NCBI GenBank assembly: GCA_965541515.1
Contig: CBEUCC010000001.1
Coordinates: forward strand, 1 to 62,713
Reading direction: 5' to 3'
Origin: an uncultured Thermoplasmata archaeon
Lineage (GTDB): Archaea; Thermoplasmatota; DTKX01; DATEUP01
Length of the DNA stretch: 62,713 bases
Shown: one piece after another, positions 1 to 54,831 of the stretch
Numbering within the stretch: the first letter of the stretch is position 1
How the letters are laid out: every line of letters starts with the position of its first letter
Made by a program: the position numbers and the translations under genes
The notes under the pieces: generated by a model
Seen by the model: the letters and a program-made list of their open reading frames with translations, nothing else
Databases searched by the model: none
Told to the model about the DNA's origin: nothing

Positions 1-1110
1 GACCCCGTACATTTCGCCCCCCTCCGTCAGCTCCAGCGCGAGGAGTGATACTATCCCCGATCTAGGCCCGGGCCCTGGCAGTCCCATCCCACGGACCATC
101 TCGCCACGCTCGCCATAGACGAGCACGACTAAGCGGAAGTCACCCAAAAGCTCCCTGCGCCCGTCAGGGTAGGATTCCACGGCCTCAAGCACGGTGGGGT
201 AGGCCGCCTCGCCCCCGTTTGGCGACAGGTCTACTCCGAAGCGTCCAATGAAGCGAAGCGCCGACGAGTTCTCAAGGTCGATGTCCAGCGTGGGTTCCTC
301 ATTGTCTGGGCTGTCGAATCGTTTCAGGCGGTCATTTGGCGCGTCCCATCCACCCCTCTTCATGATCCAGAAACGGTTTCCCGTCTGAGCGGCTTTGATC
401 GCCCCCGACCCCGGTCCAAACGCGCGACTCTCACCGGTTGAGACGTCATACAGAAAAGGGGACTGCCCAGGAGCGATGTCCACTCCGACCATTGCACCGG
501 AGCCATCGGCCGAAATGCCTAGAATCTTGCTTGTATTGTCTACGGTAGTCACATCCAGAGTTTGAGTGACGGCTCCCGTGGCGATGTCCATGATCTCTAT
601 GACCACATCGTCGCCGACTCCAGAGGCAAGGAACGCCTGTCCTGTTGCTTCTGAGACGTCGAACGCGAGGATATTGGCCGAAGACTGAAGGCTGGCAAGC
701 CTCATTCCATCAGCATCAAACAGATCCACTCGACTCCCGCAGGAGACCATGAGCGAGCTGTTTGCCAAGAGCTTTAGCGCCCCGGGCATGGGACAGGGTG
801 CGCCAGGAATGGACCAGGATCGGTTGGTGATGTTTCCCTCATCCGAGAAATCCCATCGTCGGATCTCGCTGTTACTGTAGTAGACGAAGAGCCTAGCGCT
901 TTCAACATCGATGGTCGCCGCAACCGGGTATTCCCCACTCATCGAGATCTCGGAGAAAATTTGGCGGTAGCCGCTCCCCTCGACGAATGTGAAGGTTGTG
1001 CCGAGATCCGGATCCGTAGCCGGCGGACTGCCGAAACAACCCGCCGCCACCAGAATCACTAGCGTGATGATGCTGGTGGCGCTTCGGGCTCCGCCCTTCA
1101 CGCCTACCAT
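1..1110 (-). CDS. Secreted lipoprotein, beta-propeller-like repeat protein, paralog 1 of 3 (C-terminus lies beyond the window edge)
   Basis: Absent from the ORF track because there is no stop inside the window. Hand translation of the minus strand from ATG (1110-1108) gives MVGVKGGARSATSIITLVILVAAGCFGSPPATDPDLGTTFTFVEGSGYRQ..., open to position 1 (...IVSLLALELTEGGEMYGV). It has a signal peptide plus lipobox-like AAGC. It is collinear with the products of 1424-2659 and 3075-4214 (shared ..Y.S...I..WDF/WNF motif and ..GG..Y.V tail). Confidence 0.75.
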   Translation of the reverse strand, partial: MVGVKGGARSATSIITLVILVAAGCFGSPPATDPDLGTTFTFVEGSGYRQIFSEISMSGEYPVAATIDVESARLFVYYSNSEIRRWDFSDEGNITNRSWSIPGAPCPMPGALKLLANSSLMVSCGSRVDLFDADGMRLASLQSSANILAFDVSEATGQAFLASGVGDDVVIEIMDIATGAVTQTLDVTTVDNTSKILGISADGSGAMVGVDIAPGQSPFLYDVSTGESRAFGPGSGAIKAAQTGNRFWIMKRGGWDAPNDRLKRFDSPDNEEPTLDIDLENSSALRFIGRFGVDLSPNGGEAAYPTVLEAVESYPDGRRELLGDFRLVVLVYGERGEMVRGMGLPGPGPRSGIVSLLALELTEGGEMYGV

Positions 1111-1122
1111 TCCCGAGGGGGC

Positions 1123-1135
1123 GTAGTTAAAAGCC
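1123..1135 (-). promoter_or_regulatory. TATA-like box (minus-strand sense GGCTTTTAACTAC) about 22 nt upstream of the ATG at 1110; implies a leaderless or near-leaderless mRNA
   Basis: AT-rich element in GC-rich DNA. The same CTTTAAC core recurs at 2759-2771, 4230-4242 and 37977-37986 at promoter-like distances. Confidence 0.45.
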
Positions 1136-1140
1136 TTGGT

Positions 1141-1434
1141 ACGAGCTGGCCCGGCGACAGCGTATACCGATCAATCCGGGCGTGGGCCGAGAGGGCTGGC
1201 GTCAGCGATCCTGATTCCGAAAATGCCGCAGACAAGTTCTTCGTGCATTGCTTCCGGCACTGGTTCACGACCCAACTCCTGAAGGGGGGAATGCCCCGAG
1301 AGCAAGTGGCGTTCCTCAGGGGTGACGCGCCCGCCGGCCCGGTTGACGTTTACAACCGAATCGACGCGGACGATGTGCGCATCGCGTATCTAGCAACAAT
1401 CCCTCTGCTCATCGATCGGACGCCTAAACCGTGA
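1141..1434 (+). pseudogene. Tyrosine recombinase (phage-integrase family) C-terminal remnant
   Basis: In-frame translation reads ...SVYRSIRAWAERAGVSDPDSENAADKFFVHCFRHWFTTQLLKGGMPREQVAFLRGDAPAGPVDVYNRIDADD... This is the box II pattern H-x-x-R-H..T.LL..G....V..L.G......Y of tyrosine recombinases. Only about 95 residues remain and no N-terminal or box I part exists, because the upstream DNA is the promoter and start of gene 1-1110. The usual LGH is LRGD here. Confidence 0.6.
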
Positions 1435-2659: not shown

Positions 2660-2758
2660 TGCTCCTCACCATCAGACAGCCGAAACGCCGACCGCCATCA
2701 AGACGAAGCAAGCGACGGCCCGCGCCCGGTCGTTCACAACTACCATCTTTGGGTGGCC

Positions 2759-2771
2759 TTAGTTAAAGGCC
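2759..2771. promoter_or_regulatory. Near-palindromic TATA-like element TTAGTTAAAGGCC between divergent genes (possible bidirectional promoter)
   Basis: Lies about 100 nt upstream of the minus-strand ATG at 2659 and 68-80 nt upstream of the plus-strand ATG at 2839. An identical element occurs at 4230-4242. Confidence 0.45.
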
Positions 2772-2838
2772 TCGGCGCGAGGTACCCTTGCAACGACGCG
2801 GCACGCCCCCAGTCCCTGGCAGGAGGGACACACCGAAA

Positions 2839-2982
2839 ATGGGAGACCCTAATAGGGATAACCACGCCAACCAGTTGAACCACAACAATGACGCCTACTG
2901 GCAGAGCCGCGGCGAAGACGAGCGCCCGGACGACTGGGAAGAGCGCGTGGACGACGAGTCTGACGAGGACGACGAGGACTGA
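2839..2982 (+). CDS. Acidic micro-protein (47 aa), copy 1: MGDPNRDNHANQLNHNNDAYWQSRGEDERPDDWEERVDDESDEDDED
   Basis: ATG preceded by GGAGGGA about 10 nt upstream. A second copy is at 4310-4444. Several inter-copy differences are synonymous (cgc/cgg Arg codons) and the indel is 9 nt (in frame), consistent with translation. The longer track ORF (2788-) probably over-extends the start. Confidence 0.6.
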   Translation: MGDPNRDNHANQLNHNNDAYWQSRGEDERPDDWEERVDDESDEDDED

Positions 2983-3024
2983 GTAGTCCTCGCGCCTTGC
3001 GTAGCACCGGCCAGATGTGCTTTC

Positions 3025-3050
3025 GGGACCGGCGGGCCGGCGCCGGTTCC
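3025..3050 (+). terminator. GC-rich hairpin (GGGACCGGC-loop-GCCGGTTCC) followed by ATCTTCCCC
   Basis: 9-bp stem with one G-U pair, conserved in the second module copy (4490-4515). Sits between the convergent 3' ends of the micro-ORF and gene 3075-4214. Confidence 0.4.
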
Positions 3051-3074
3051 ATCTTCCCCAAAGACGAGGCATGG

Positions 3075-4214
3075 TCACTCAGTGATGTTGTGCCTCACAA
3101 GCACGGGGGGCGTGGCATCGGGCCCTCCGTAGGAAAGCCATAGTTGCGATCCCCCGACCGCAGCTCGTAGGGCCGATACGGCGTAGAATCCCCCGTCGGA
3201 AAGGAGCGCAATGGTCACCTCCACTCCCGGTAGTTCGCCACCCCTCACTAGGCTTCCATTTAGGTCGTATACGTAGGCAATGTTACGCACATCGCTGAGG
3301 GGACGGTATTGGCCTCGTGAGTATTCGTAGCCCCCGAAGGAAGTAGCGAAAGCGGCATCCAACCCTCGTGGCGAGGCGTACAGGTGCTTGTCGACGAGCG
3401 AGAACGAAAGCCCATGGCCGTGTTCAAGGGTTTCCGCAAACTGGGGGGTTCCGTCTGTAAACGCCTCGAAGGCGCGAAGGACGTCGAATGGGCCATCAAA
3501 ATGGTTGGTAGACGCCCAGACGTAATCCCCCGAGGAGGGAACGACCCCAGCTCCGGGGCCAAGCGTCAGATTCTCGCCGCCAGCCAAACGCCAGAAGCTG
3601 ACGTCTTCCAATGATACGGCGCCGACCACGTCGCCCGCGGAGTTGATCGAAACCTGTCGGGGCTCATTGGGGAGGTCGATCCGAGTGCGCAAAACGCCAG
3701 TGGCCATTTCTCGAACTTCCAGGGCGGGCGGTGACGCTATGGCACCGACGACCAGGCCCGCCTCTCCCGCAACCGCAAGATCCGAGAGGTTGCCTGAAAA
3801 GTGAACCGCGAACCGGAGGTTCCCTTCGGCCGAATAACCGTCAACGCTGGCGCCGCAGGCCACGAGGAGCGTGTGATTAGGCAGCATTCGCAACAGAGGC
3901 CTCGAGCAAGGCGCCGCACCTTCAAGCAACAGCCCATGTGTGGCATGGCTTTCGTCGGTGAAGTTCCACCAGTGGATTGCCCCGTCGCTGAAGGCGGCGT
4001 AGACGATGCTCCACTCCACGTCGATGACCGCGCGTATCGCAAACGGTCCTGTCGTGTTCTGGTAGGCCAGAATCTGCCGAACGCCGCTGCCATCCTCAAA
4101 CTCCATCACGTGCGCCTCGGGGTCTGGCTGCGGGGCACCAAGGCAACCGGCAGAGGCCACGACCGCCACCACGGCGAGGCTTGCGAATGGACTCACGCGG
4201 CCATGCACAATCAT
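3075..4214 (-). CDS. Secreted lipoprotein, beta-propeller-like repeat protein, paralog 3 of 3
   Basis: 379-aa ORF. N-terminus is MIVHGRVSPFASLAVVAVVASAGCLGAP (signal peptide plus lipobox SAGC). TATA-like CCTTTAACTAA lies about 24 nt upstream of the ATG (leaderless-type). Collinear with paralogs 1 and 2. Confidence 0.8.
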   Translation of the reverse strand: MIVHGRVSPFASLAVVAVVASAGCLGAPQPDPEAHVMEFEDGSGVRQILAYQNTTGPFAIRAVIDVEWSIVYAAFSDGAIHWWNFTDESHATHGLLLEGAAPCSRPLLRMLPNHTLLVACGASVDGYSAEGNLRFAVHFSGNLSDLAVAGEAGLVVGAIASPPALEVREMATGVLRTRIDLPNEPRQVSINSAGDVVGAVSLEDVSFWRLAGGENLTLGPGAGVVPSSGDYVWASTNHFDGPFDVLRAFEAFTDGTPQFAETLEHGHGLSFSLVDKHLYASPRGLDAAFATSFGGYEYSRGQYRPLSDVRNIAYVYDLNGSLVRGGELPGVEVTIALLSDGGFYAVSALRAAVGGSQLWLSYGGPDATPPVLVRHNITE

Positions 4215-4309
4215 GGTTTGCCGGCCGGGTTAGTTAAAGGCCTCGGCTGGTGGTTCCCCAGAGACGACGCGGCACGCCCCCAGTCCCTGGTAGGAGGGAC
4301 ACACCGAAA

Positions 4310-4444
4310 ATGGGAGACCCTAATAGGGATAACCACGCCAACCAGTTGAACCCGGAGCACGACGCCTACTGGCAGAGCCGGGGCGAAGACGAGCGCCCGG
4401 ACGACTGGGAAGAGCGGTTGGACGAAGAGTCTGACGAGGACTGA
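4310..4444 (+). CDS. Acidic micro-protein (44 aa), copy 2: MGDPNRDNHANQLNPEHDAYWQSRGEDERPDDWEERLDEESDED
   Basis: Same leader and GGAGGGA as copy 1. Differences cluster in three adjacent codons (HNN vs PEH) and in the acidic tail. Confidence 0.6.
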   Translation: MGDPNRDNHANQLNPEHDAYWQSRGEDERPDDWEERLDEESDED

Positions 4445-4489
4445 TTAGTCCCGTCGCCTCGCCTTGGCCCGGCCATATGATCGCCTTTC

Positions 4490-4515
4490 GGGACCGGGGG
4501 GCCGGCGCCGGTTCC
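4490..4515 (+). terminator. Conserved GC-rich hairpin followed by ATTTTCCCC
   Basis: Second copy of the 3025-3050 hairpin. A T4 tract follows it. Confidence 0.4.
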
Positions 4516-4523
4516 ATTTTCCC

Positions 4524-5315
4524 CTATTCGGGAGCCGAGCAGAGGTTGGCAAGGTAGACGCCATACTCGGTAAGCCGGGCTGCCCGCTTCCTTCCTCTGG
4601 TCTCAATTTCGATGTAGCCCTCGCGGAGCAACTTCTGGAGGACGCGCTTGTTCAACCTCACGTTGAGCTTGTTTCGTTCGCTGCGCGGCGTCGACGGCTC
4701 GTACTTCGCATCCTCCCACCCCGGCGCCCTACCCGCACGAAGCGCCTGGATCAATTCATAGTAGCCAAGGGTTGCATCAGGCGAGGAATTCAGGGCCTTT
4801 AACACGAGACGGCCTTCTTGGTCGGGCAGTTTCAACTCAAAGAACGGAAGAGTGCGGGCATCGCCGTCCATCCCCCGCGTTAGCCCATGTTTCTGGACCC
4901 CGGCCTTCGTGTGAATGTACTCCTCCGGTGTGACGTAGTAGATTACGCCGCCCGAGGCTCCCAAATGCGCCATCGCGGCTAGCGAGGCTCCCAACGATGC
5001 GATTTTCCCGGCAGCGGACATGTTCAAGTAGATCCTGTTGCCCTTCGCGCGCTCCGACTGAACGACCTTCGCGACTTCGCGCATGACTCCGATCAGGTCT
5101 GAGTTCGCATCGACCTTGATGTGCTTGACCCGGATTCCCTTCTTTTCGAGGGCCGCCCGGACCCGGTCAAAACAGTACTTCTGATTCTTGTGGGAGGCGG
5201 GGTTGCATAGCAGGTAGACAAGATGGGCATGCATCTGGACGACCGGCAGGACCGCGCGATCTACTTCCCAGCCCAGGGGGACGACGTGAACTAGTTTCTC
5301 CACTGATGGTTTCAA
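4524..5315 (-). CDS. Csa3/CARF-like (HFX_2341 / DUF6293-like) regulator: Rossmann-like N-domain plus C-terminal winged helix
   Basis: 263 aa. The N-terminus VHVVPLGWEVDRAVLPVV...HLVYLL resembles the Csa3-type sensor domain. The C-terminus ...LNKRVLQKLLREGYIEIETRGRKRAARLTEYGVYL is wHTH-like. The assignment is from memory of family patterns, not from a search. Confidence 0.5.
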   Translation of the reverse strand: MKPSVEKLVHVVPLGWEVDRAVLPVVQMHAHLVYLLCNPASHKNQKYCFDRVRAALEKKGIRVKHIKVDANSDLIGVMREVAKVVQSERAKGNRIYLNMSAAGKIASLGASLAAMAHLGASGGVIYYVTPEEYIHTKAGVQKHGLTRGMDGDARTLPFFELKLPDQEGRLVLKALNSSPDATLGYYELIQALRAGRAPGWEDAKYEPSTPRSERNKLNVRLNKRVLQKLLREGYIEIETRGRKRAARLTEYGVYLANLCSAPE

Positions 5316-5427
5316 TGATCATGTTGGTATTGATGCTTTCCCTACAAAGCTTGATATTCTGACACACTATTGAACCATTCCATGCTCATGGCGCCGACCG
5401 CGGCGTCCCGGCACAGGCGGACTACAA

Positions 5428-5856
5428 ATGCGTGAATCGGAAATGTACGAACCCGTACGCCAGTTCTTGAAACGGCGTCTTGAGAGCTCCAACGCCCCGT
5501 ACTACTGCGATGAATGTGTGACCCGTGAAGGCTACCGTGCGGACCTCGTGATCGTGCAGTCGCGGCGGGACTGTGTACACGTGGTTGAGCTCAAGGCTGC
5601 TATCACCGAGCCCGATGAGGCGATCGACCAACTCCTTGGGTACCCAGGGAACCACCACTGGCTGGCCGTCTCGGACGACCTGTATGAGGCGTGGCCCGGC
5701 CTCTTCAGCGCCTGCGCTGATGCAGGTGTTGGCCTACTGGTTGTGGGAGGCACCTACCGTCATTGGGTCGTACTCAAGTTGAAGCCGCACCGCGAGTACG
5801 GGGACTTCCTCGATGAGTACCCCCGGATAGAGCAAGCGTGGACGGAGGGATGCTAG
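5428..5856 (+). CDS. Stand-alone PD-(D/E)xK nuclease-fold protein (NucS C-domain / DUF91-like motif set)
   Basis: 142 aa. ...GYRADLVIVQSRRDCVHVVELKAAITEPDEAIDQLLGY shows D...E-x-K followed by Q-x-x-x-Y, the arrangement I recall for NucS/EndoMS and, less certainly, Cap4 and Shedu (DUF4263) nucleases. An alternative start is Met at 5443. Confidence 0.55.
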   Translation: MRESEMYEPVRQFLKRRLESSNAPYYCDECVTREGYRADLVIVQSRRDCVHVVELKAAITEPDEAIDQLLGYPGNHHWLAVSDDLYEAWPGLFSACADAGVGLLVVGGTYRHWVVLKLKPHREYGDFLDEYPRIEQAWTEGC

Positions 5857-5928
5857 CGTGCCCGGCTTCCGGAGCGCTCTCTACGCAATCCCCGTCAGTT
5901 AGATGGTTGATGCGAGGAGGAATTCTGG

Positions 5929-6198
5929 ATGACGGCCACACGAAGCTTCCAGATTGACCAGCACCGCGTACCCCAGATGCTTGAGGCCATCCGGCGTCAC
6001 GCGGCGGCCGCCGGCGTCAGGTTTGTGGGAACCGAACGCTCCGGATCCTTCTCGGGAGTGGCGCGTGGGTATGAAATCGAGGGATCCTACACCGTCAGCG
6101 GCGACCAACTGATGGTCACGCTTACCAAGCATCCGGACGGGTTCTTCGCAAACGCCAATGCGGTCTTTGGGGAGATCCAGAAGTGGATTCGGGCATGA
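5929..6198 (+). CDS. Small hypothetical protein (89 aa)
   Basis: GAGGAGG Shine-Dalgarno 8 nt upstream. Weak resemblance to the small PHA_gran_rgn-type fold (…SGSFSGVARGYEIEGSYTVSGDQLMVTLTKHP...). No confident family assignment. Confidence 0.5.
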   Translation: MTATRSFQIDQHRVPQMLEAIRRHAAAAGVRFVGTERSGSFSGVARGYEIEGSYTVSGDQLMVTLTKHPDGFFANANAVFGEIQKWIRA

Positions 6199-6283
6199 TC
6201 GAGCAATCGATTTGCGTTTGCCCGCCGCTCTTTCCTGGAACCTCGCGCGTGGATCTAACCCAAATTAGTAGGGAGGAGAGCCC

Positions 6284-8569
6284 ATGAGTGGACATTCACG
6301 TCCGCCAAACGGTTGGCGAGCCGTAATCGAAACGATCGTCGCCGCGCGGGCCCACGGAGAGGAGATCGTAAGGCAGTGGGAATCGCTGACCGCCGGGCTC
6401 CGATACACACCGTTGGAGGTCGTGAGCTATCTAGAGAAACGGAAGCTGTGGCACTATGATGACCTAATCCGGCACCTGATTCGGGCGGCCACCCCCCTAG
6501 AGGATCAATACGAATTCATCGTGAAGGTCGCGGCCACGTGGGGTCCAAGAGGTTTCTTCCGCATTTGGGGCACACTTACGGATGTTGCCACTTCAGATCC
6601 AACGTCCGCAACGCTTCTCCTTCGTCGACTACTCGAGGAGAATCCCCAAGGCGCCGCCTACGCTACGAGCGCTCTGCTGCTAGGGATCGCCATGTCCGAG
6701 TCACAACCCACGCTAACCGTGATCAAGGATGCGATCCGTTCGACAGTGCCCCATTCTCGGACTGCGGGACTGTGCGCGTTGTCTGATCTCATCAGGAAGA
6801 CAAACCAACTCACCCAATCGACCATAGCTGCAGTCGAAACGATCGCCGACCCCACGAATGAACTCGAAGCCGGAATAATGCTAGACATCTTCGAACGTGT
6901 GGCCTCTCTAGGGGGGCCGCCGATGGGCGAAAGGATCCTCAGGATCGCTAGGAGCGGGAGCACAGTTACGTTGAAGGAGGCCATCCGGATTTCAACAGAC
7001 ACCTTTGCCTCGGATGAGGCCTTCTTGAGGGAGCTTTTCGAAATAGCTTCTGCCAATCCGGAGGCTCTCCGAGGATTCTGGTCCGGAAGATTCATGGGAC
7101 TCATATACTCCTTTGATCCCGATGCGGTTCTCCGTGTTATCGGATCGGTTTCTGAGCAAACCTCTCTTGTGGATTCCTTCTACGATGGGGCGAACGAGTT
7201 CTTAGATGCCGTGGGAAAGAGCGATCGGGAGAGGTTCTTTGATGCGATCGGGGAATGGCTGAACCGAAGGAATTCCAGGCTACTAATCCAGGCGCCAGCC
7301 TTGGTTGCTCGGGCATTCAAAGGCAACGAGGATCAGCTTGTCGTACTGCTAAGAAAGTGGGAGTACGGCGAATCCCCTCAGTTCCTAGTCCGGCTGGAGA
7401 CGCTGAGGGAAGTGCTGTCGGAAGCGTCGATAGAGAAGAAACCAGCTTTTGGCGCCATTGTCCAGTCCGTTGAAGAGTTGGCCGACTCCGCAAGTGTAAA
7501 CAGACAACTTGCGCTCCAAGGCGAGACCGATCCCCGGTTCCGGGCTCTGCGTCTAGTTGATGCTTTGCTCAACCCGCCTCCGCCCATTGACCCCGTGCAG
7601 ATCAAGAGGTCGATGGGGTTTGTTCCAAGCTTGGTTCGATTTGTGCAGGAATCATTCATCGTCAAGGAATTAAAGAAGGGAGCAAGTGACCATCCATTGA
7701 TCCGAATGTTGGCAGTCAACGTACCCTCGTCTACGGACGTGGAAGCAGCCATTGGGGACCTTTCGAGCGAGGAGGAACCGAACAGATTGATGGCGGCCTG
7801 GGCGCGTGCCCGCCAGATGGTCAAGCTCTTCAACCATTTTGGCTACTGGGAGAAGGTGTTCTCGGGACTGAACGAGGGGGAGAAAGGGATGCCGTCGCTG
7901 CGTGACAAGCTGCGAAATTCCCCGCAGACGATAAGTGCTCTCGCTGAGGCGGAAGTCATTAGCCAGCTTAAGAGAGGCGGTGCGTTGGAGGTCGAGCCGA
8001 CCTTGGCCACAAGTGGCACCAAGCCGGACCTGCGGGTTGACCTAACTGAAGCCTCCGCTTTGCTGGAGGTCTATCGACCGAGCATGGAGAGATCCCTTCT
8101 GTTTGAGACCGGCGTTCACGGAATCAATCGGGCGAAGATCCGAGCTCCCATCGAAGCGAAGATCGCGGCGCAGTATGACGCGACCGCGGGCGACTTGGGA
8201 TTCCCTCTGTTCCTCGTAATGAACCTCGAGGAAACGCCTTACCTTGATTTCATGCTCCCGGAGTTCATGGTGGGAACAACCGCTGTAAGTCTACGTCTCA
8301 ATCCGTCAATGGGGACTGCAGAGATCGGTGGGCTCATCGCGCAGCCAGATGCAATGGGTGAAACTGACGAACGCTTGAACAGCATCAGTGGCGTCATTGC
8401 CTACCGCCGTGACCTCGTCTCAGAAGCCCCAGGCAAGCTTGTTGGGCGGATCTACCTGAATCCGCGAGCGGTTCGACCACTTGATCCTGAAGGCGTTCGA
8501 GAACTCCATCGTCGCTTCTTTGAAACGGATCCCCCAGACGACGAACCGTTCATTAATACCGATCCGTGA
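6284..8569 (+). CDS. Large hypothetical protein: all-helical (HEAT/ARM-like) N-terminal ~560 aa plus C-terminal nuclease-like (PD-(D/E)xK-like) module; no NTPase motif seen
   Basis: 761 aa with GGGAGGAG Shine-Dalgarno upstream. The C-terminal segment AEAEVISQLKRGG.LEVEP...GTKPDLRVDLTEASALLEVYRP resembles helix-E / beta-D / beta-E-x-(K) topology, but the Lys is not in the canonical place. I found no Walker A motif by eye. Confidence 0.6.
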   Translation: MSGHSRPPNGWRAVIETIVAARAHGEEIVRQWESLTAGLRYTPLEVVSYLEKRKLWHYDDLIRHLIRAATPLEDQYEFIVKVAATWGPRGFFRIWGTLTDVATSDPTSATLLLRRLLEENPQGAAYATSALLLGIAMSESQPTLTVIKDAIRSTVPHSRTAGLCALSDLIRKTNQLTQSTIAAVETIADPTNELEAGIMLDIFERVASLGGPPMGERILRIARSGSTVTLKEAIRISTDTFASDEAFLRELFEIASANPEALRGFWSGRFMGLIYSFDPDAVLRVIGSVSEQTSLVDSFYDGANEFLDAVGKSDRERFFDAIGEWLNRRNSRLLIQAPALVARAFKGNEDQLVVLLRKWEYGESPQFLVRLETLREVLSEASIEKKPAFGAIVQSVEELADSASVNRQLALQGETDPRFRALRLVDALLNPPPPIDPVQIKRSMGFVPSLVRFVQESFIVKELKKGASDHPLIRMLAVNVPSSTDVEAAIGDLSSEEEPNRLMAAWARARQMVKLFNHFGYWEKVFSGLNEGEKGMPSLRDKLRNSPQTISALAEAEVISQLKRGGALEVEPTLATSGTKPDLRVDLTEASALLEVYRPSMERSLLFETGVHGINRAKIRAPIEAKIAAQYDATAGDLGFPLFLVMNLEETPYLDFMLPEFMVGTTAVSLRLNPSMGTAEIGGLIAQPDAMGETDERLNSISGVIAYRRDLVSEAPGKLVGRIYLNPRAVRPLDPEGVRELHRRFFETDPPDDEPFINTDP

Positions 8570-49357: not shown

Positions 49358-49676
49358 CTCGTGCCTAGACCGGGGAGTTAGGCGTTCCCTACACCGCCAT
49401 TACCGTCTATAGGCGGGGTCCAAAAGGCCCGATGCGGCGAACCGGTGGCTTGGCGGAGCCGCGCGCGATTCCCATGATGTCTCGGCCCTCGAACGGACGG
49501 GGTTGCGGGCACTTTCCGGAGGGAAGGTGGCCGCGGCGTATGCAGAGGGGATCGGCCTAGGCCCGGAAGGGAGCAGGCCCACCTCGTACCGGCCGTGTTG
49601 AGGGAGACCCGGGGCGGAGGGCGCGCGCGGGTTAACTCCGTCGAGTCGCCGGGCGCCCAGTTGGGTCAGGCGCGGG
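49358..49676 (+). ncRNA. ffs: Signal recognition particle RNA (archaeal 7S RNA); ends approximate
   Basis: The ORF-free gap contains the universally conserved helix-8 sequence CCUAGGCCCGGAAGGGAGCAGG (GGAA tetraloop at 49565-49568). There is a helix-6-like hairpin CUUUCC-GGAG-GGAAGG (49512-49527). A long helix 5 pairs GGAGCCGCGCGCG (~49455) with CGCGCGCGG..CUCC (~49622). Alu-domain hairpins are GGGGA-GUUAGGCG-UUCCC and CCGCC-loop-GGCGG. The ends pair as CGUGCCU (49360) with AGGCGCG (49668). Confidence 0.8.
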
Positions 49677-53893: not shown

Positions 53894-53920
53894 GCATAAC
53901 ATATTATATGTCTTATATGC
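53894..53920. promoter_or_regulatory. AT-rich imperfect palindrome GCATAACATATTATATGTCTTATATGC spanning the fic start codon (core ACATAT-T-ATATGT at 53899-53911)
   Basis: Perfect 13-nt palindrome seen directly. It sits in the only strongly AT-rich stretch of this region. Confidence 0.4.
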
Positions 53921-54831
53921 GTTACAAGCTAATCGTGGATAATCGCATACTGGAGGAGCTGCGGACAGCGTTCCTGACACGCCGGCCAATAGACGACCTC
54001 CCCGACGAAGTCTGGAAGCGTACTGCGGCCTTGAACACGTGGGGGACCAACGCCCTCGAAGGGAACACGCTTACGTGGGCCGACGTGGACAAACTCCTCC
54101 TACAACAGAAGGGTGTCTCCGATCGACCTACCTCCGACATCCTGGAAACGCTCCAGCACGAGCAAGCCTTTCGAAGCCTGGTGGCCCAAAAGAAGGCACC
54201 CCTCACCCTCGTCGCTGTCCAGGAAATGCACCTGTCGGTCTTCCGTGGGGTTACTGGAAAGGACGCCGGCCAGTGGCGAAGGATCAACGTGCGAATTGGC
54301 GAGACCGCCTACCGGCCCCCCTCGATGGAGAAGGTCGTCCCCGAGATGGAGCGTTGGATCGCCGAATACGAGCGGCGCGACTTGGGGGCCGAGGAGACCT
54401 TCGCCCTTGCGGTGTGGATGCACCACCGGTTCGAATCGATCCACCCCTTCCGAGACGGCAATGGGCGCGTAGGGCGCCTCCTGCTCAACCTGCATTTCCT
54501 GAAGCGGAACTGGGCCCCTGTTCACTTGGGTCCGCCCGACCGCAAGGACTACCTGCAGGCGCTTCAGGCCGGACACGAGGGCAACTTCGCGCCGCTCATC
54601 CACCTGCTCCAGTCGGCGATGGCAGCTTCGTTGCTCGATCTACTTGACCAAGTCGGGTCAGGGCGCGATACGCTGGCCCCGCTCGGCTCCCTCTCGAAGA
54701 GGTCGGGCTACACCGCGCATTACATGGCGCTCCGGGCCCTGCAGGGGGAGTTGCCAGCGGTCAAGGAAGGGGGCCGTTGGAGGAGCAGCCCGAGGGCGGT
54801 CGAACTGTACGCGAAGTACGTAGGCCGGTAG
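53908..54831 (+). CDS. fic: Fic-family protein (AMPylase-type) with intramolecular inhibitory helix motif
   Basis: Fic motif HPFRDGNGRVGR. N-terminal TNALEG matches the (S/T)xxxE(G/N) autoinhibition motif. An alternative ATG is at 53917. Confidence 0.85.
   Translation: MSYMRYKLIVDNRILEELRTAFLTRRPIDDLPDEVWKRTAALNTWGTNALEGNTLTWADVDKLLLQQKGVSDRPTSDILETLQHEQAFRSLVAQKKAPLTLVAVQEMHLSVFRGVTGKDAGQWRRINVRIGETAYRPPSMEKVVPEMERWIAEYERRDLGAEETFALAVWMHHRFESIHPFRDGNGRVGRLLLNLHFLKRNWAPVHLGPPDRKDYLQALQAGHEGNFAPLIHLLQSAMAASLLDLLDQVGSGRDTLAPLGSLSKRSGYTAHYMALRALQGELPAVKEGGRWRSSPRAVELYAKYVGR

Follow-up and report, generated by a model that had tools for sequence, protein, structure and literature searches.

Do four neighbouring genes of an uncultured Thermoplasmata archaeon make up a new antiviral system, or is only one of them part of something that other genomes share? 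The genes, here called A to D, lie at positions 4524 to 8569 of contig CBEUCC010000001.1 (assembly GCA_965541515.1), and the window, the stretch of DNA that was analysed, is the entire contig of 62,713 bp. It comes from a GC-rich archaeon (~68% GC), carries an archaeal signal recognition particle RNA at 49358-49676, and its proteins are non-acidic. An earlier reading of the DNA letters had proposed an undescribed nuclease-based, defence-like module, with a regulator transcribed away from a three-gene operon. The analysis presented here points to a narrower answer, held with a little more confidence than doubt: the locus would be a lineage-specific assembly in an acquired low-GC island, and its conserved part would be D alone, a member of a defence-island family that joins an OloA-like HEAT region to a divergent PD-(D/E)xK domain. 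The features on which the argument turns are as follows, and the list of open reading frames (ORFs) bears out the coordinates first given for the four genes.

4524-5315, minus strand: gene A, 263 residues, CARF3 regulator of the HFX_2341 type
5316-5427: divergent intergenic region between A and B, 112 bp, 51% GC, the presumed promoter/operator
5428-5856, plus strand: gene B, 142 residues, acidic, with a PD-(D/E)xK-type motif
5929-6198, plus strand: gene C, 89 residues, basic (isoelectric point 9.5), without a family match
6284-8569, plus strand: gene D, 761 residues, HEAT/adaptin-like part and divergent nuclease-like domain
6419-7306, plus strand: HEAT/adaptin-like region of D, residues 46-341, resembling OloA
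7901-8518, plus strand: PD-(D/E)xK-like domain of D, residues ~540-745, alpha/beta, divergent
1 to ~8600: low-GC tract at the contig end, holding the four genes and the C-terminal remnant of a tyrosine integrase (1063-1431, plus strand)

Which part of the locus is shared with other genomes?

The family of D was found by a full HMMER scan against 1.84 billion cluster representatives (50% identity), which returned 115 representatives at an expectation value (E) of 1e-3 or lower, 49 at 1e-10 or lower and 9 at 1e-30 or lower. Most members are 700-760 residues long (about 740) and align with D from end to end at 20-27% identity. Neither Pfam nor NCBIfam has a model for the whole protein or its family, and a sequence search of D against the PDB was uninformative; judged by these searches, the family is unnamed, undescribed and rare. 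It is patchily distributed over genomes of 33-64% GC, with members in Nitrosopumilus and Nitrosotalea, and a scan for related loci with a tight sub-alignment of the family found 2 genomic and 9 metagenomic loci. No member turned up in 2.9 million viral contigs, nor, by tblastn with D, in 50,697 phage records and 72,556 plasmids.

By the terms of the sequence-only reading itself, its module would fall if other genomes did not keep the four genes together. For this comparison, 29 locus records were fetched, comprising 18 distinct D-family loci and 4 loci of the A family, and A, B and C were compared with all ORFs of the 29 records by phmmer with the --max option. Nothing appeared under E 0.2, save A on its own family's loci. 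No relative of A, B or C is seen in the 18 D-family loci; about 12 of these are informative, and the rest are short contigs or have flanks given as plain ORF lists without family assignments. The four A-family loci, in turn, show no relative of B, C or D. Since only D recurs elsewhere, the four-gene "system" is not conserved, and on this comparison the module A-B-C-D is at most lineage-specific.

What kind of protein is D?

The first description of D was of an all-helical protein with a nuclease-like C-terminus. Its N-terminal part is indeed made of helical repeats and its C-terminus does have a nuclease fold, but the last ~220 residues are alpha/beta. The repeat region matches the PADLOC model of OloA (E 6.4e-7, residues 46-341 on model positions 70-377 of 596), as do 19 of 40 family members (best 2.8e-14), while HEAT_2 is matched by 11 of the 40. 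When a profile of the family is compared with the PDB, it finds the alphaRep HEAT proteins (7e-21) and the AP-1/AP-2 beta adaptins. These matches to generic HEAT_2, to alphaRep and to adaptins leave a specific homology to OloA, beyond the repeat class, unproven. As had been stated of D, no nucleoside triphosphatase (NTPase) motif is present: a Walker A motif is found in none of A to D.

For the C-terminus, structure prediction followed by Foldseek had been recommended. An AlphaFold2 (AF2) model of residues 511-761, built from an alignment of 104 sequences, is confident (predicted local distance difference test score, pLDDT, 90; predicted template modelling score, pTM, 0.87) and has the PD-(D/E)xK core fold, with elements in the order alpha-beta-beta-beta-alpha-beta (helix 36-53, strands 58-60, 73-76 and 81-87, helix 106-120 and strand 132-137, in model numbering). 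Over 114 family members, E555 is conserved in 95%, D582 in 96%, E595 in 100%, K/R618 in 91% and Q/H630 in 94%, with G664 (98%) and N726 (85%) conserved as well; in the model, the first helix of the core bears E555, strand 2 (73-76) begins with D582 and strand 3 (81-87) includes E595, so that acidic residues occupy the PD-(D/E)xK positions. The D protein of the window keeps E555, D582, E595, K618 and Q630.

The top Foldseek matches are weak, but nearly all are PD-(D/E)xK nucleases. They include SfsA, NotI, Cas4 SSO0001, R2 endonuclease, Bax1, BspD6I, Vsr, Hjc, McrC, Can2 and AddB, together with the cap-snatching endonucleases of arenaviruses and bunyaviruses, Mrr-domain proteins, a PDDEXK exonuclease, MmcB-like proteins and viral Mrr/PDDEXK proteins. 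The best match has E 8e-3 and a template modelling (TM) score of ~0.27 in the PDB and E 9e-5 in BFVD. Taken with the model, these matches make it credible that the C-terminus of D is a divergent domain of the PD-(D/E)xK type, and hence a predicted nuclease.

How does D compare with known defence systems?

That A to D match no named system still holds for the combination as a whole. It is not without precedent, however, for the repeat region of D is similar to OloA, a component of Olokun, reportedly introduced by Millman and colleagues in 2022 as an anti-phage system of OloA and OloB. In Olokun, OloA, which is adaptin-like, binds OloB, a PD-(D/E)xK nuclease, at its helical N-terminus, and the resulting 2:2 complex degrades phage DNA (bioRxiv 10.1101/2025.07.10.664194). 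D likewise joins a HEAT/adaptin-like part, itself without an NTPase motif, with a PD-(D/E)xK-type nuclease domain, and it shares the defence-island context. The two differ in that D carries both parts on one polypeptide of 761 residues where Olokun is a 2:2 complex of two proteins, that the nuclease-like domain of D lacks the ExK lysine, that the upstream partners of the D family are variable, and that the family is archaeal and environmental, whereas Olokun was characterised in bacteria. OloB has no match in B, nor among the 55 ORFs of the window at E of 1e-5 or lower. Since OloB is matched neither there nor in the C-terminal half of D, and since the architecture is fused, D is ruled out as a canonical member of Olokun.

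Single proteins with a fused nuclease are also known. Shedu (SduA) and the type IV restriction enzymes of the Mrr type combine a variable N-terminal sensor or DNA-binding domain with a C-terminal PD-(D/E)xK nuclease, and D, with its sensor-like domain fused to a PD-(D/E)xK-like domain, is built in a similar way. For Mrr, there is the further likeness that a stand-alone Mrr_N gene precedes one D homologue and that the BFVD fold matches of D include Mrr-domain proteins. Unlike Shedu and Mrr, D has no sequence match to their catalytic models in PADLOC or Pfam, and a HEAT solenoid of ~500 residues replaces their N-terminal domains. It is credible, then, that D is a fused variant of an Olokun-like HEAT-nuclease system with swappable partners, and that the copy in the window is a divergent and possibly atypical one.

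Where are the relatives of D found?

Where the flanks are informative, D relatives have neighbours of restriction-modification, toxin-antitoxin, SIR2, Qat, AAA_15, transposase or integrase type. The loci with recognisable neighbours are the following.

L001: an integrase, and what reads in the sequence as the C-terminal part of a restriction-modification methyltransferase (without a recorded family match)
L003: defence-type SIR2 gene (2694-3689) 16 bp upstream (PADLOC SIR2/Aga_SIR2, 3e-8) and a QatC-like gene further upstream (4e-19)
L004: SIR2-like protein with a GAGAS motif nearby, no PADLOC match
L005: two Endonuc_Holl genes
L007: VapBC, HEPN, PIN_2 directly downstream, and the MjaI restriction enzyme with its methyltransferase
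L008: N6_N4 methyltransferase and a stand-alone Mrr_N gene of 94 residues (6685-6969) 32 bp upstream (mREase_IV, 3.9e-12)
L010: DUF1156 and DUF499
L012: divergent NsnB/AriA/GajA-like ATPase (6e-39), Endonuc_Holl and PLDc_2
L013: complete type I hsdRSM and three transposases
L015 (Nitrosopumilus sp.) and L016 (Ca. Nitrosotalea devanaterra): transposases, an integrase and HNH

In four independent loci, the D-family gene directly follows a conserved gene for a protein of ~230 residues, with an overlap or a gap of a few bp between them (L015:6325-7008, L016:6297-6989, L026:4278-4994 and L025:1386-2063). A profile of this protein matches a proteasome beta/HslV subunit (8oix_H) nearly end to end at E 7e-4, and its N-terminus is Met-Thr; the pair looks like a two-gene module of a protease and a HEAT-nuclease. 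The finding of SIR2, a proteasome-like protease or Mrr_N directly upstream of different D relatives suggests that the gene in this position is exchangeable. On the evidence of these neighbourhoods, the D family is embedded in defence islands, in archaea as well as in other prokaryotes.

A broader view can be built on this, although it must be put tentatively and is more doubtful than the answer given at the outset. In this broader view, D proteins would be the sensor/scaffold and nuclease core of a modular, mainly archaeal and environmental defence family, distant from Olokun, with an exchangeable upstream slot for effector or specificity genes (the SIR2 NADase, the proteasome-beta/HslV-like protease, the Mrr_N DNA reader or, in the window, a small PD-(D/E)xK nuclease together with the 89-residue protein), and in the present archaeon the whole cassette would have come under a ligand-responsive regulator of the CARF type.

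The same neighbourhoods allow a different explanation, that D proteins serve mobile elements rather than host immunity, for example as a nuclease for integration, maintenance, addiction or competition between elements, with the HEAT region as an interaction scaffold and the defence-island context arising from co-localisation. L001, L013, L015, L016 and the window do have integrases or transposases no more than a few kb away, and the patchy distribution over genomes of such different GC content would fit. Nevertheless, this is improbable, given that the viral, phage and plasmid collections named above yielded no family member and that what stands next to D (SIR2, Mrr_N, restriction-modification and Qat) is typical of immune effectors.

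How did the four genes come to lie together?

The sequence-only reading placed the four genes in the DNA of lowest G+C of the window. The 1-kb minimum (55.0%, 7001-8000) does lie inside D, but the low-GC tract is wider than the genes: it covers 1 to ~8600 at 55-62% GC, as compared to ~68% elsewhere in the window, and directly past the stop codon of D the GC content is up to 0.70. Codon usage follows the same pattern. The GC content at third codon positions (GC3) is 0.63-0.74 in A to D and 0.63-0.77 within the tract, versus 0.87 in the flanking host genes, and in each of A, B, C and D the codon positions are coding-like, with GC3 above GC1 and GC1 above GC2. The low-GC tract and the jump in GC after D place the four genes in a larger island that runs off the contig end, and this island was apparently acquired horizontally.

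Besides the four genes, three paralogues that encode secreted proteins lie in the tract, as do two copies of a gene for an acidic protein of 64 residues and the tyrosine-recombinase remnant, which matches model positions 109-166 of 172 of Phage_integrase at E 0.0016. The remnant is wedged between two of the secreted-protein paralogues, which fits a decayed integrative element. All three of these secreted/lipoprotein-like genes (1-1170, 1424-2659 and 3075-4214) are on the minus strand and have no family matches. A direct duplication of ~300 bp with 91-95% identity is also present (2759-3059 and 4230-4524), each duplicate holding, along with a GC-rich segment that resembles a hairpin, a gene for the 64-residue, highly acidic protein (2788-2982 and 4250-4444); the second duplicate ends on the first base of the stop codon of A (4524). 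The duplication is part of repeated units that include the three secreted/lipoprotein-like genes.

Do A, B and C belong with D?

Genes B, C and D had been described as tightly spaced. They are close, yet the gaps measure 72 bp between B and C and 85 bp between C and D. The Shine-Dalgarno (SD) sites claimed for C and D are present as SD-like sites, GAGGAGG at 5914-5920, 8 nt ahead of the start of C, and GGGAGGAG at 6271-6278, 5 nt ahead of the start of D; there is none before B, the first gene of the three. No T-runs occur in the two gaps. The shared strand, the spacing, the SD-like sites and the lack of T-runs make co-transcription of B, C and D plausible.

Gene A was rightly taken for a Csa3/CARF-like sensor with a winged helix-turn-helix domain, since PADLOC and Pfam agree on it. 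It matches CARF3 over its full length (1.6e-57, residues 4-258) and Csa3 more weakly (6.5e-4), its CARF-like N-terminal domain being HFX_2341_N (4.7e-30, residues 9-133) and its C-terminal winged helix DUF6293_C (5.6e-13, residues 156-257). It thus has the same CARF-like Rossmann domain and winged helix as Csa3a and HFX_2341. It differs from them in scoring far under the cut-off of the NCBIfam HFX_2341 equivalog (12.5 bits against 500), in being only ~26-28% identical to haloarchaeal DUF6293 proteins and in having no cas genes nearby. The haloarchaeal plasmid homologues of A (26-28% identity) are annotated as DUF6293 family proteins, and their neighbours are mixed, among them a trio of TerB-N, ATPase and helicase genes, SbcCD-like genes with an integrase, transporters and two-component genes. 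With A as the query, the species-representative genomes gave no related locus, and the PDB sequence search was uninformative.

No CRISPR-like array was detected in the window, and a search of its 55 ORFs against PADLOC at E of 1e-5 or lower found no cas gene and no cyclase, as the first reading of the locus had said, so that A is accompanied by neither CRISPR-cas nor a cyclic-oligonucleotide synthase within the 62.7-kb contig. From this it had been argued that a CARF-like sensor beside nuclease genes is an orphan arrangement. Set against what is seen in the family, that argument weighs little. Only one member has been characterised, HFX_2341 of Haloferax mediterranei. This global repressor is inherited vertically to a strong degree, is conserved in haloarchaea that lack CRISPR, and is found away from CRISPR loci (PMC11434293). 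Its presence in CRISPR-less species and the mixed neighbours of the plasmid homologues make an orphan CARF regulator normal in the family of A. As far as these comparisons go, the family is widespread, and nothing links it to B, C or D.

The same PADLOC search matched PD-T4-2_B (1.9e-37), PDC-S04 (3e-31), mad2 (8.8e-20) and PDC-S24 (7.9e-9) among the 55 ORFs, as well as SoFic (8.6e-27). The SoFic match probably comes from an ORF of 307 residues at 53908-54828 (plus strand) with the Fic motif HPFRDGNGR. This ORF sits in a second patch of lower GC content (54-56 kb, 58.5-62% GC), perhaps another region of foreign or defence DNA.

The intergenic region between A and B is locally the most AT-rich stretch. 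Within it, 5328-5341 and 5368-5381 form an imperfect direct repeat, TATTGAnnnnnTTCC, with its copies 40 bp apart, and this 14-nt pair may be an operator, though two copies could be chance. When A is translated from the TTG at 5315, its exact sequence is absent from a collection of 15 billion proteins, in which B, C and D are present; the public annotation probably uses another start codon for A.

Gene B does carry the D / ExK / QxxxY signature first noticed in it, as D39-LV ... VE54-L-K56 ... Q68-LLG-Y72. This composite motif occurs in 1 of the 317 six-frame ORFs of at least 100 residues in the window and in none of 20,000 shuffles of B. Profile matches are below threshold and all fall on residues 1-82 (HSDR_N_2, 0.082; PDC-M47B, 0.0041; phrog_12193, 0.0023). 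A word-index search of a set of 5.8 billion protein clusters found no homologue, returning only B itself, though word-index searches with D and with the alignment of its family likewise gave back just the query, and that family emerged solely by the full HMMER scan. Searches of plasmids and phages by tblastn gave no homologue of B either, and PDB sequences gave no match. The single-sequence AF2 model of B is poor (pLDDT 46), and its Foldseek matches, to ribosomal proteins, were discarded as noise.

With small nucleases of the NucS, HsdR_N and Cap4 type, B shares the motif and its spacing, and its weak HSDR_N_2 match lies over the motif. It differs from them in falling below every family threshold, in lacking the N-terminal domain of NucS and in having no detectable homologue. 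A textbook motif with sub-threshold profile matches and no homologue makes B a plausible, yet unproven, small PD-(D/E)xK nuclease. It was rejected as a paralogue of the nuclease domain of D (hmmsearch E 0.28, hhalign probability 0.3%), and profiles give no support for an orthologue of NucS, Hjc or Endonuc_Holl. For C, profile scans gave no family match and at 90% identity the protein clusters with no other, no homology search having been made for it; its GC3 of 0.73 is coding-like.

Could the four genes nonetheless be one signal-controlled system, in which the CARF domain of A detects a small ligand, whether a cyclic oligonucleotide or something else, and A switches on the nucleases B and D, with C as an adaptor or inhibitor? 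Much about the layout would suit this: a full-length CARF3 and winged-helix protein is transcribed divergently from three genes on one strand with short gaps and SD-like sites, across an AT-richer region of 112 bp with a direct repeat, and all four genes lie within the same low-GC tract. It is unlikely even so. A, B and C have no relative in the D-family loci and B, C and D none in the A-family loci, B has no detectable homologue and C no cluster mate, the 55 ORFs include no cyclase or cas gene, and the characterised HFX_2341 is a global regulator in species without CRISPR.

What weighs against a conserved D of the Olokun kind?

Several points count against the reading of the locus as a lineage-specific assembly around an OloA-like, nuclease-bearing D. 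The likeness to OloA could reflect the shared class of HEAT repeats alone, and the C-terminal 420 residues of ten D-family members gave no PADLOC match of any kind, OloB included, at E of 10 or lower. All Foldseek matches of the C-terminal model are weak, with TM scores of 0.2-0.3, E from 9e-5 to 0.5 and no PDB match under E 1e-3. The ExK lysine is absent across the family, where position 597 is I, Y, F or L (Y597 in the window); K/R618, at the start of the next helix, may replace it. At column 686 (8339-8341), 101 of 114 members, including the closest relatives, have Arg, and the D protein of the window is the only one of the 114 with Ala, a change that could impair this copy. Also, A is probably a regulator of the divergent promoter region, a role read off the divergent arrangement itself, and B and C stand beside no other D-family gene in the 18 loci. 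GC3 is 0.73 in A/B/C as compared to 0.63 in D, which hints at separate histories of B/C and D. This gap in GC3, together with the lack of B and C beside other D-family genes, leaves a functional link unproven.

The least likely explanation is that the window holds a decaying remnant with no functional module left, B and C being spurious or degenerating ORFs and D catalytically compromised (R686A), for the missing homologues of B, the singleton C, the overlapping alternative ORFs common in this GC-rich DNA, the lone Ala at column 686 and the integrase remnant and segmental duplications nearby are set against coding-like codon positions in B and C, a strong and well-placed SD-like site before C, a composite catalytic motif in B that is intact and unlikely by chance, and a full-length D in which E555, D582, E595, K618 and Q630 are intact.

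How might D work, and what would it mean?

For the preferred reading, in which D is the conserved part of the locus, the mechanism can be sketched by analogy. D most plausibly works like Olokun, with the repeat scaffold serving recognition or assembly and a metal-dependent nuclease as the effector. The HEAT solenoid would be the surface that recognises, or acts as a scaffold for, some protein or nucleic-acid feature derived from the invader. It would also gate the metal-dependent nuclease at the C-terminus (E555/D582/E595, to which the next helix would add K/R618), and the nuclease would then cut invader DNA. The partner slot would be filled here by B and C, which may be accessory or co-effector subunits from the same transcript, and A would most likely repress or induce the promoter of B-C-D and its own from the 112-bp region.

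If D proteins are active defence nucleases, they would constitute a single-polypeptide, Olokun-like system in archaea of the sort of Nitrosopumilus and Nitrosotalea, about whose immune repertoire little is known, and they would offer a simple model for the gating of a nuclease by a HEAT/adaptin solenoid. The variable upstream partners (SIR2, the proteasome-like protease and Mrr_N) would, if the pattern is true, be a further case in which effectors are swapped while the core stays conserved. The CARF regulator beside the cassette provides a testable case of control by a CARF domain outside CRISPR and, if the modular reading is true, nucleotide signalling would be linked to a non-CRISPR nuclease system in this archaeon.

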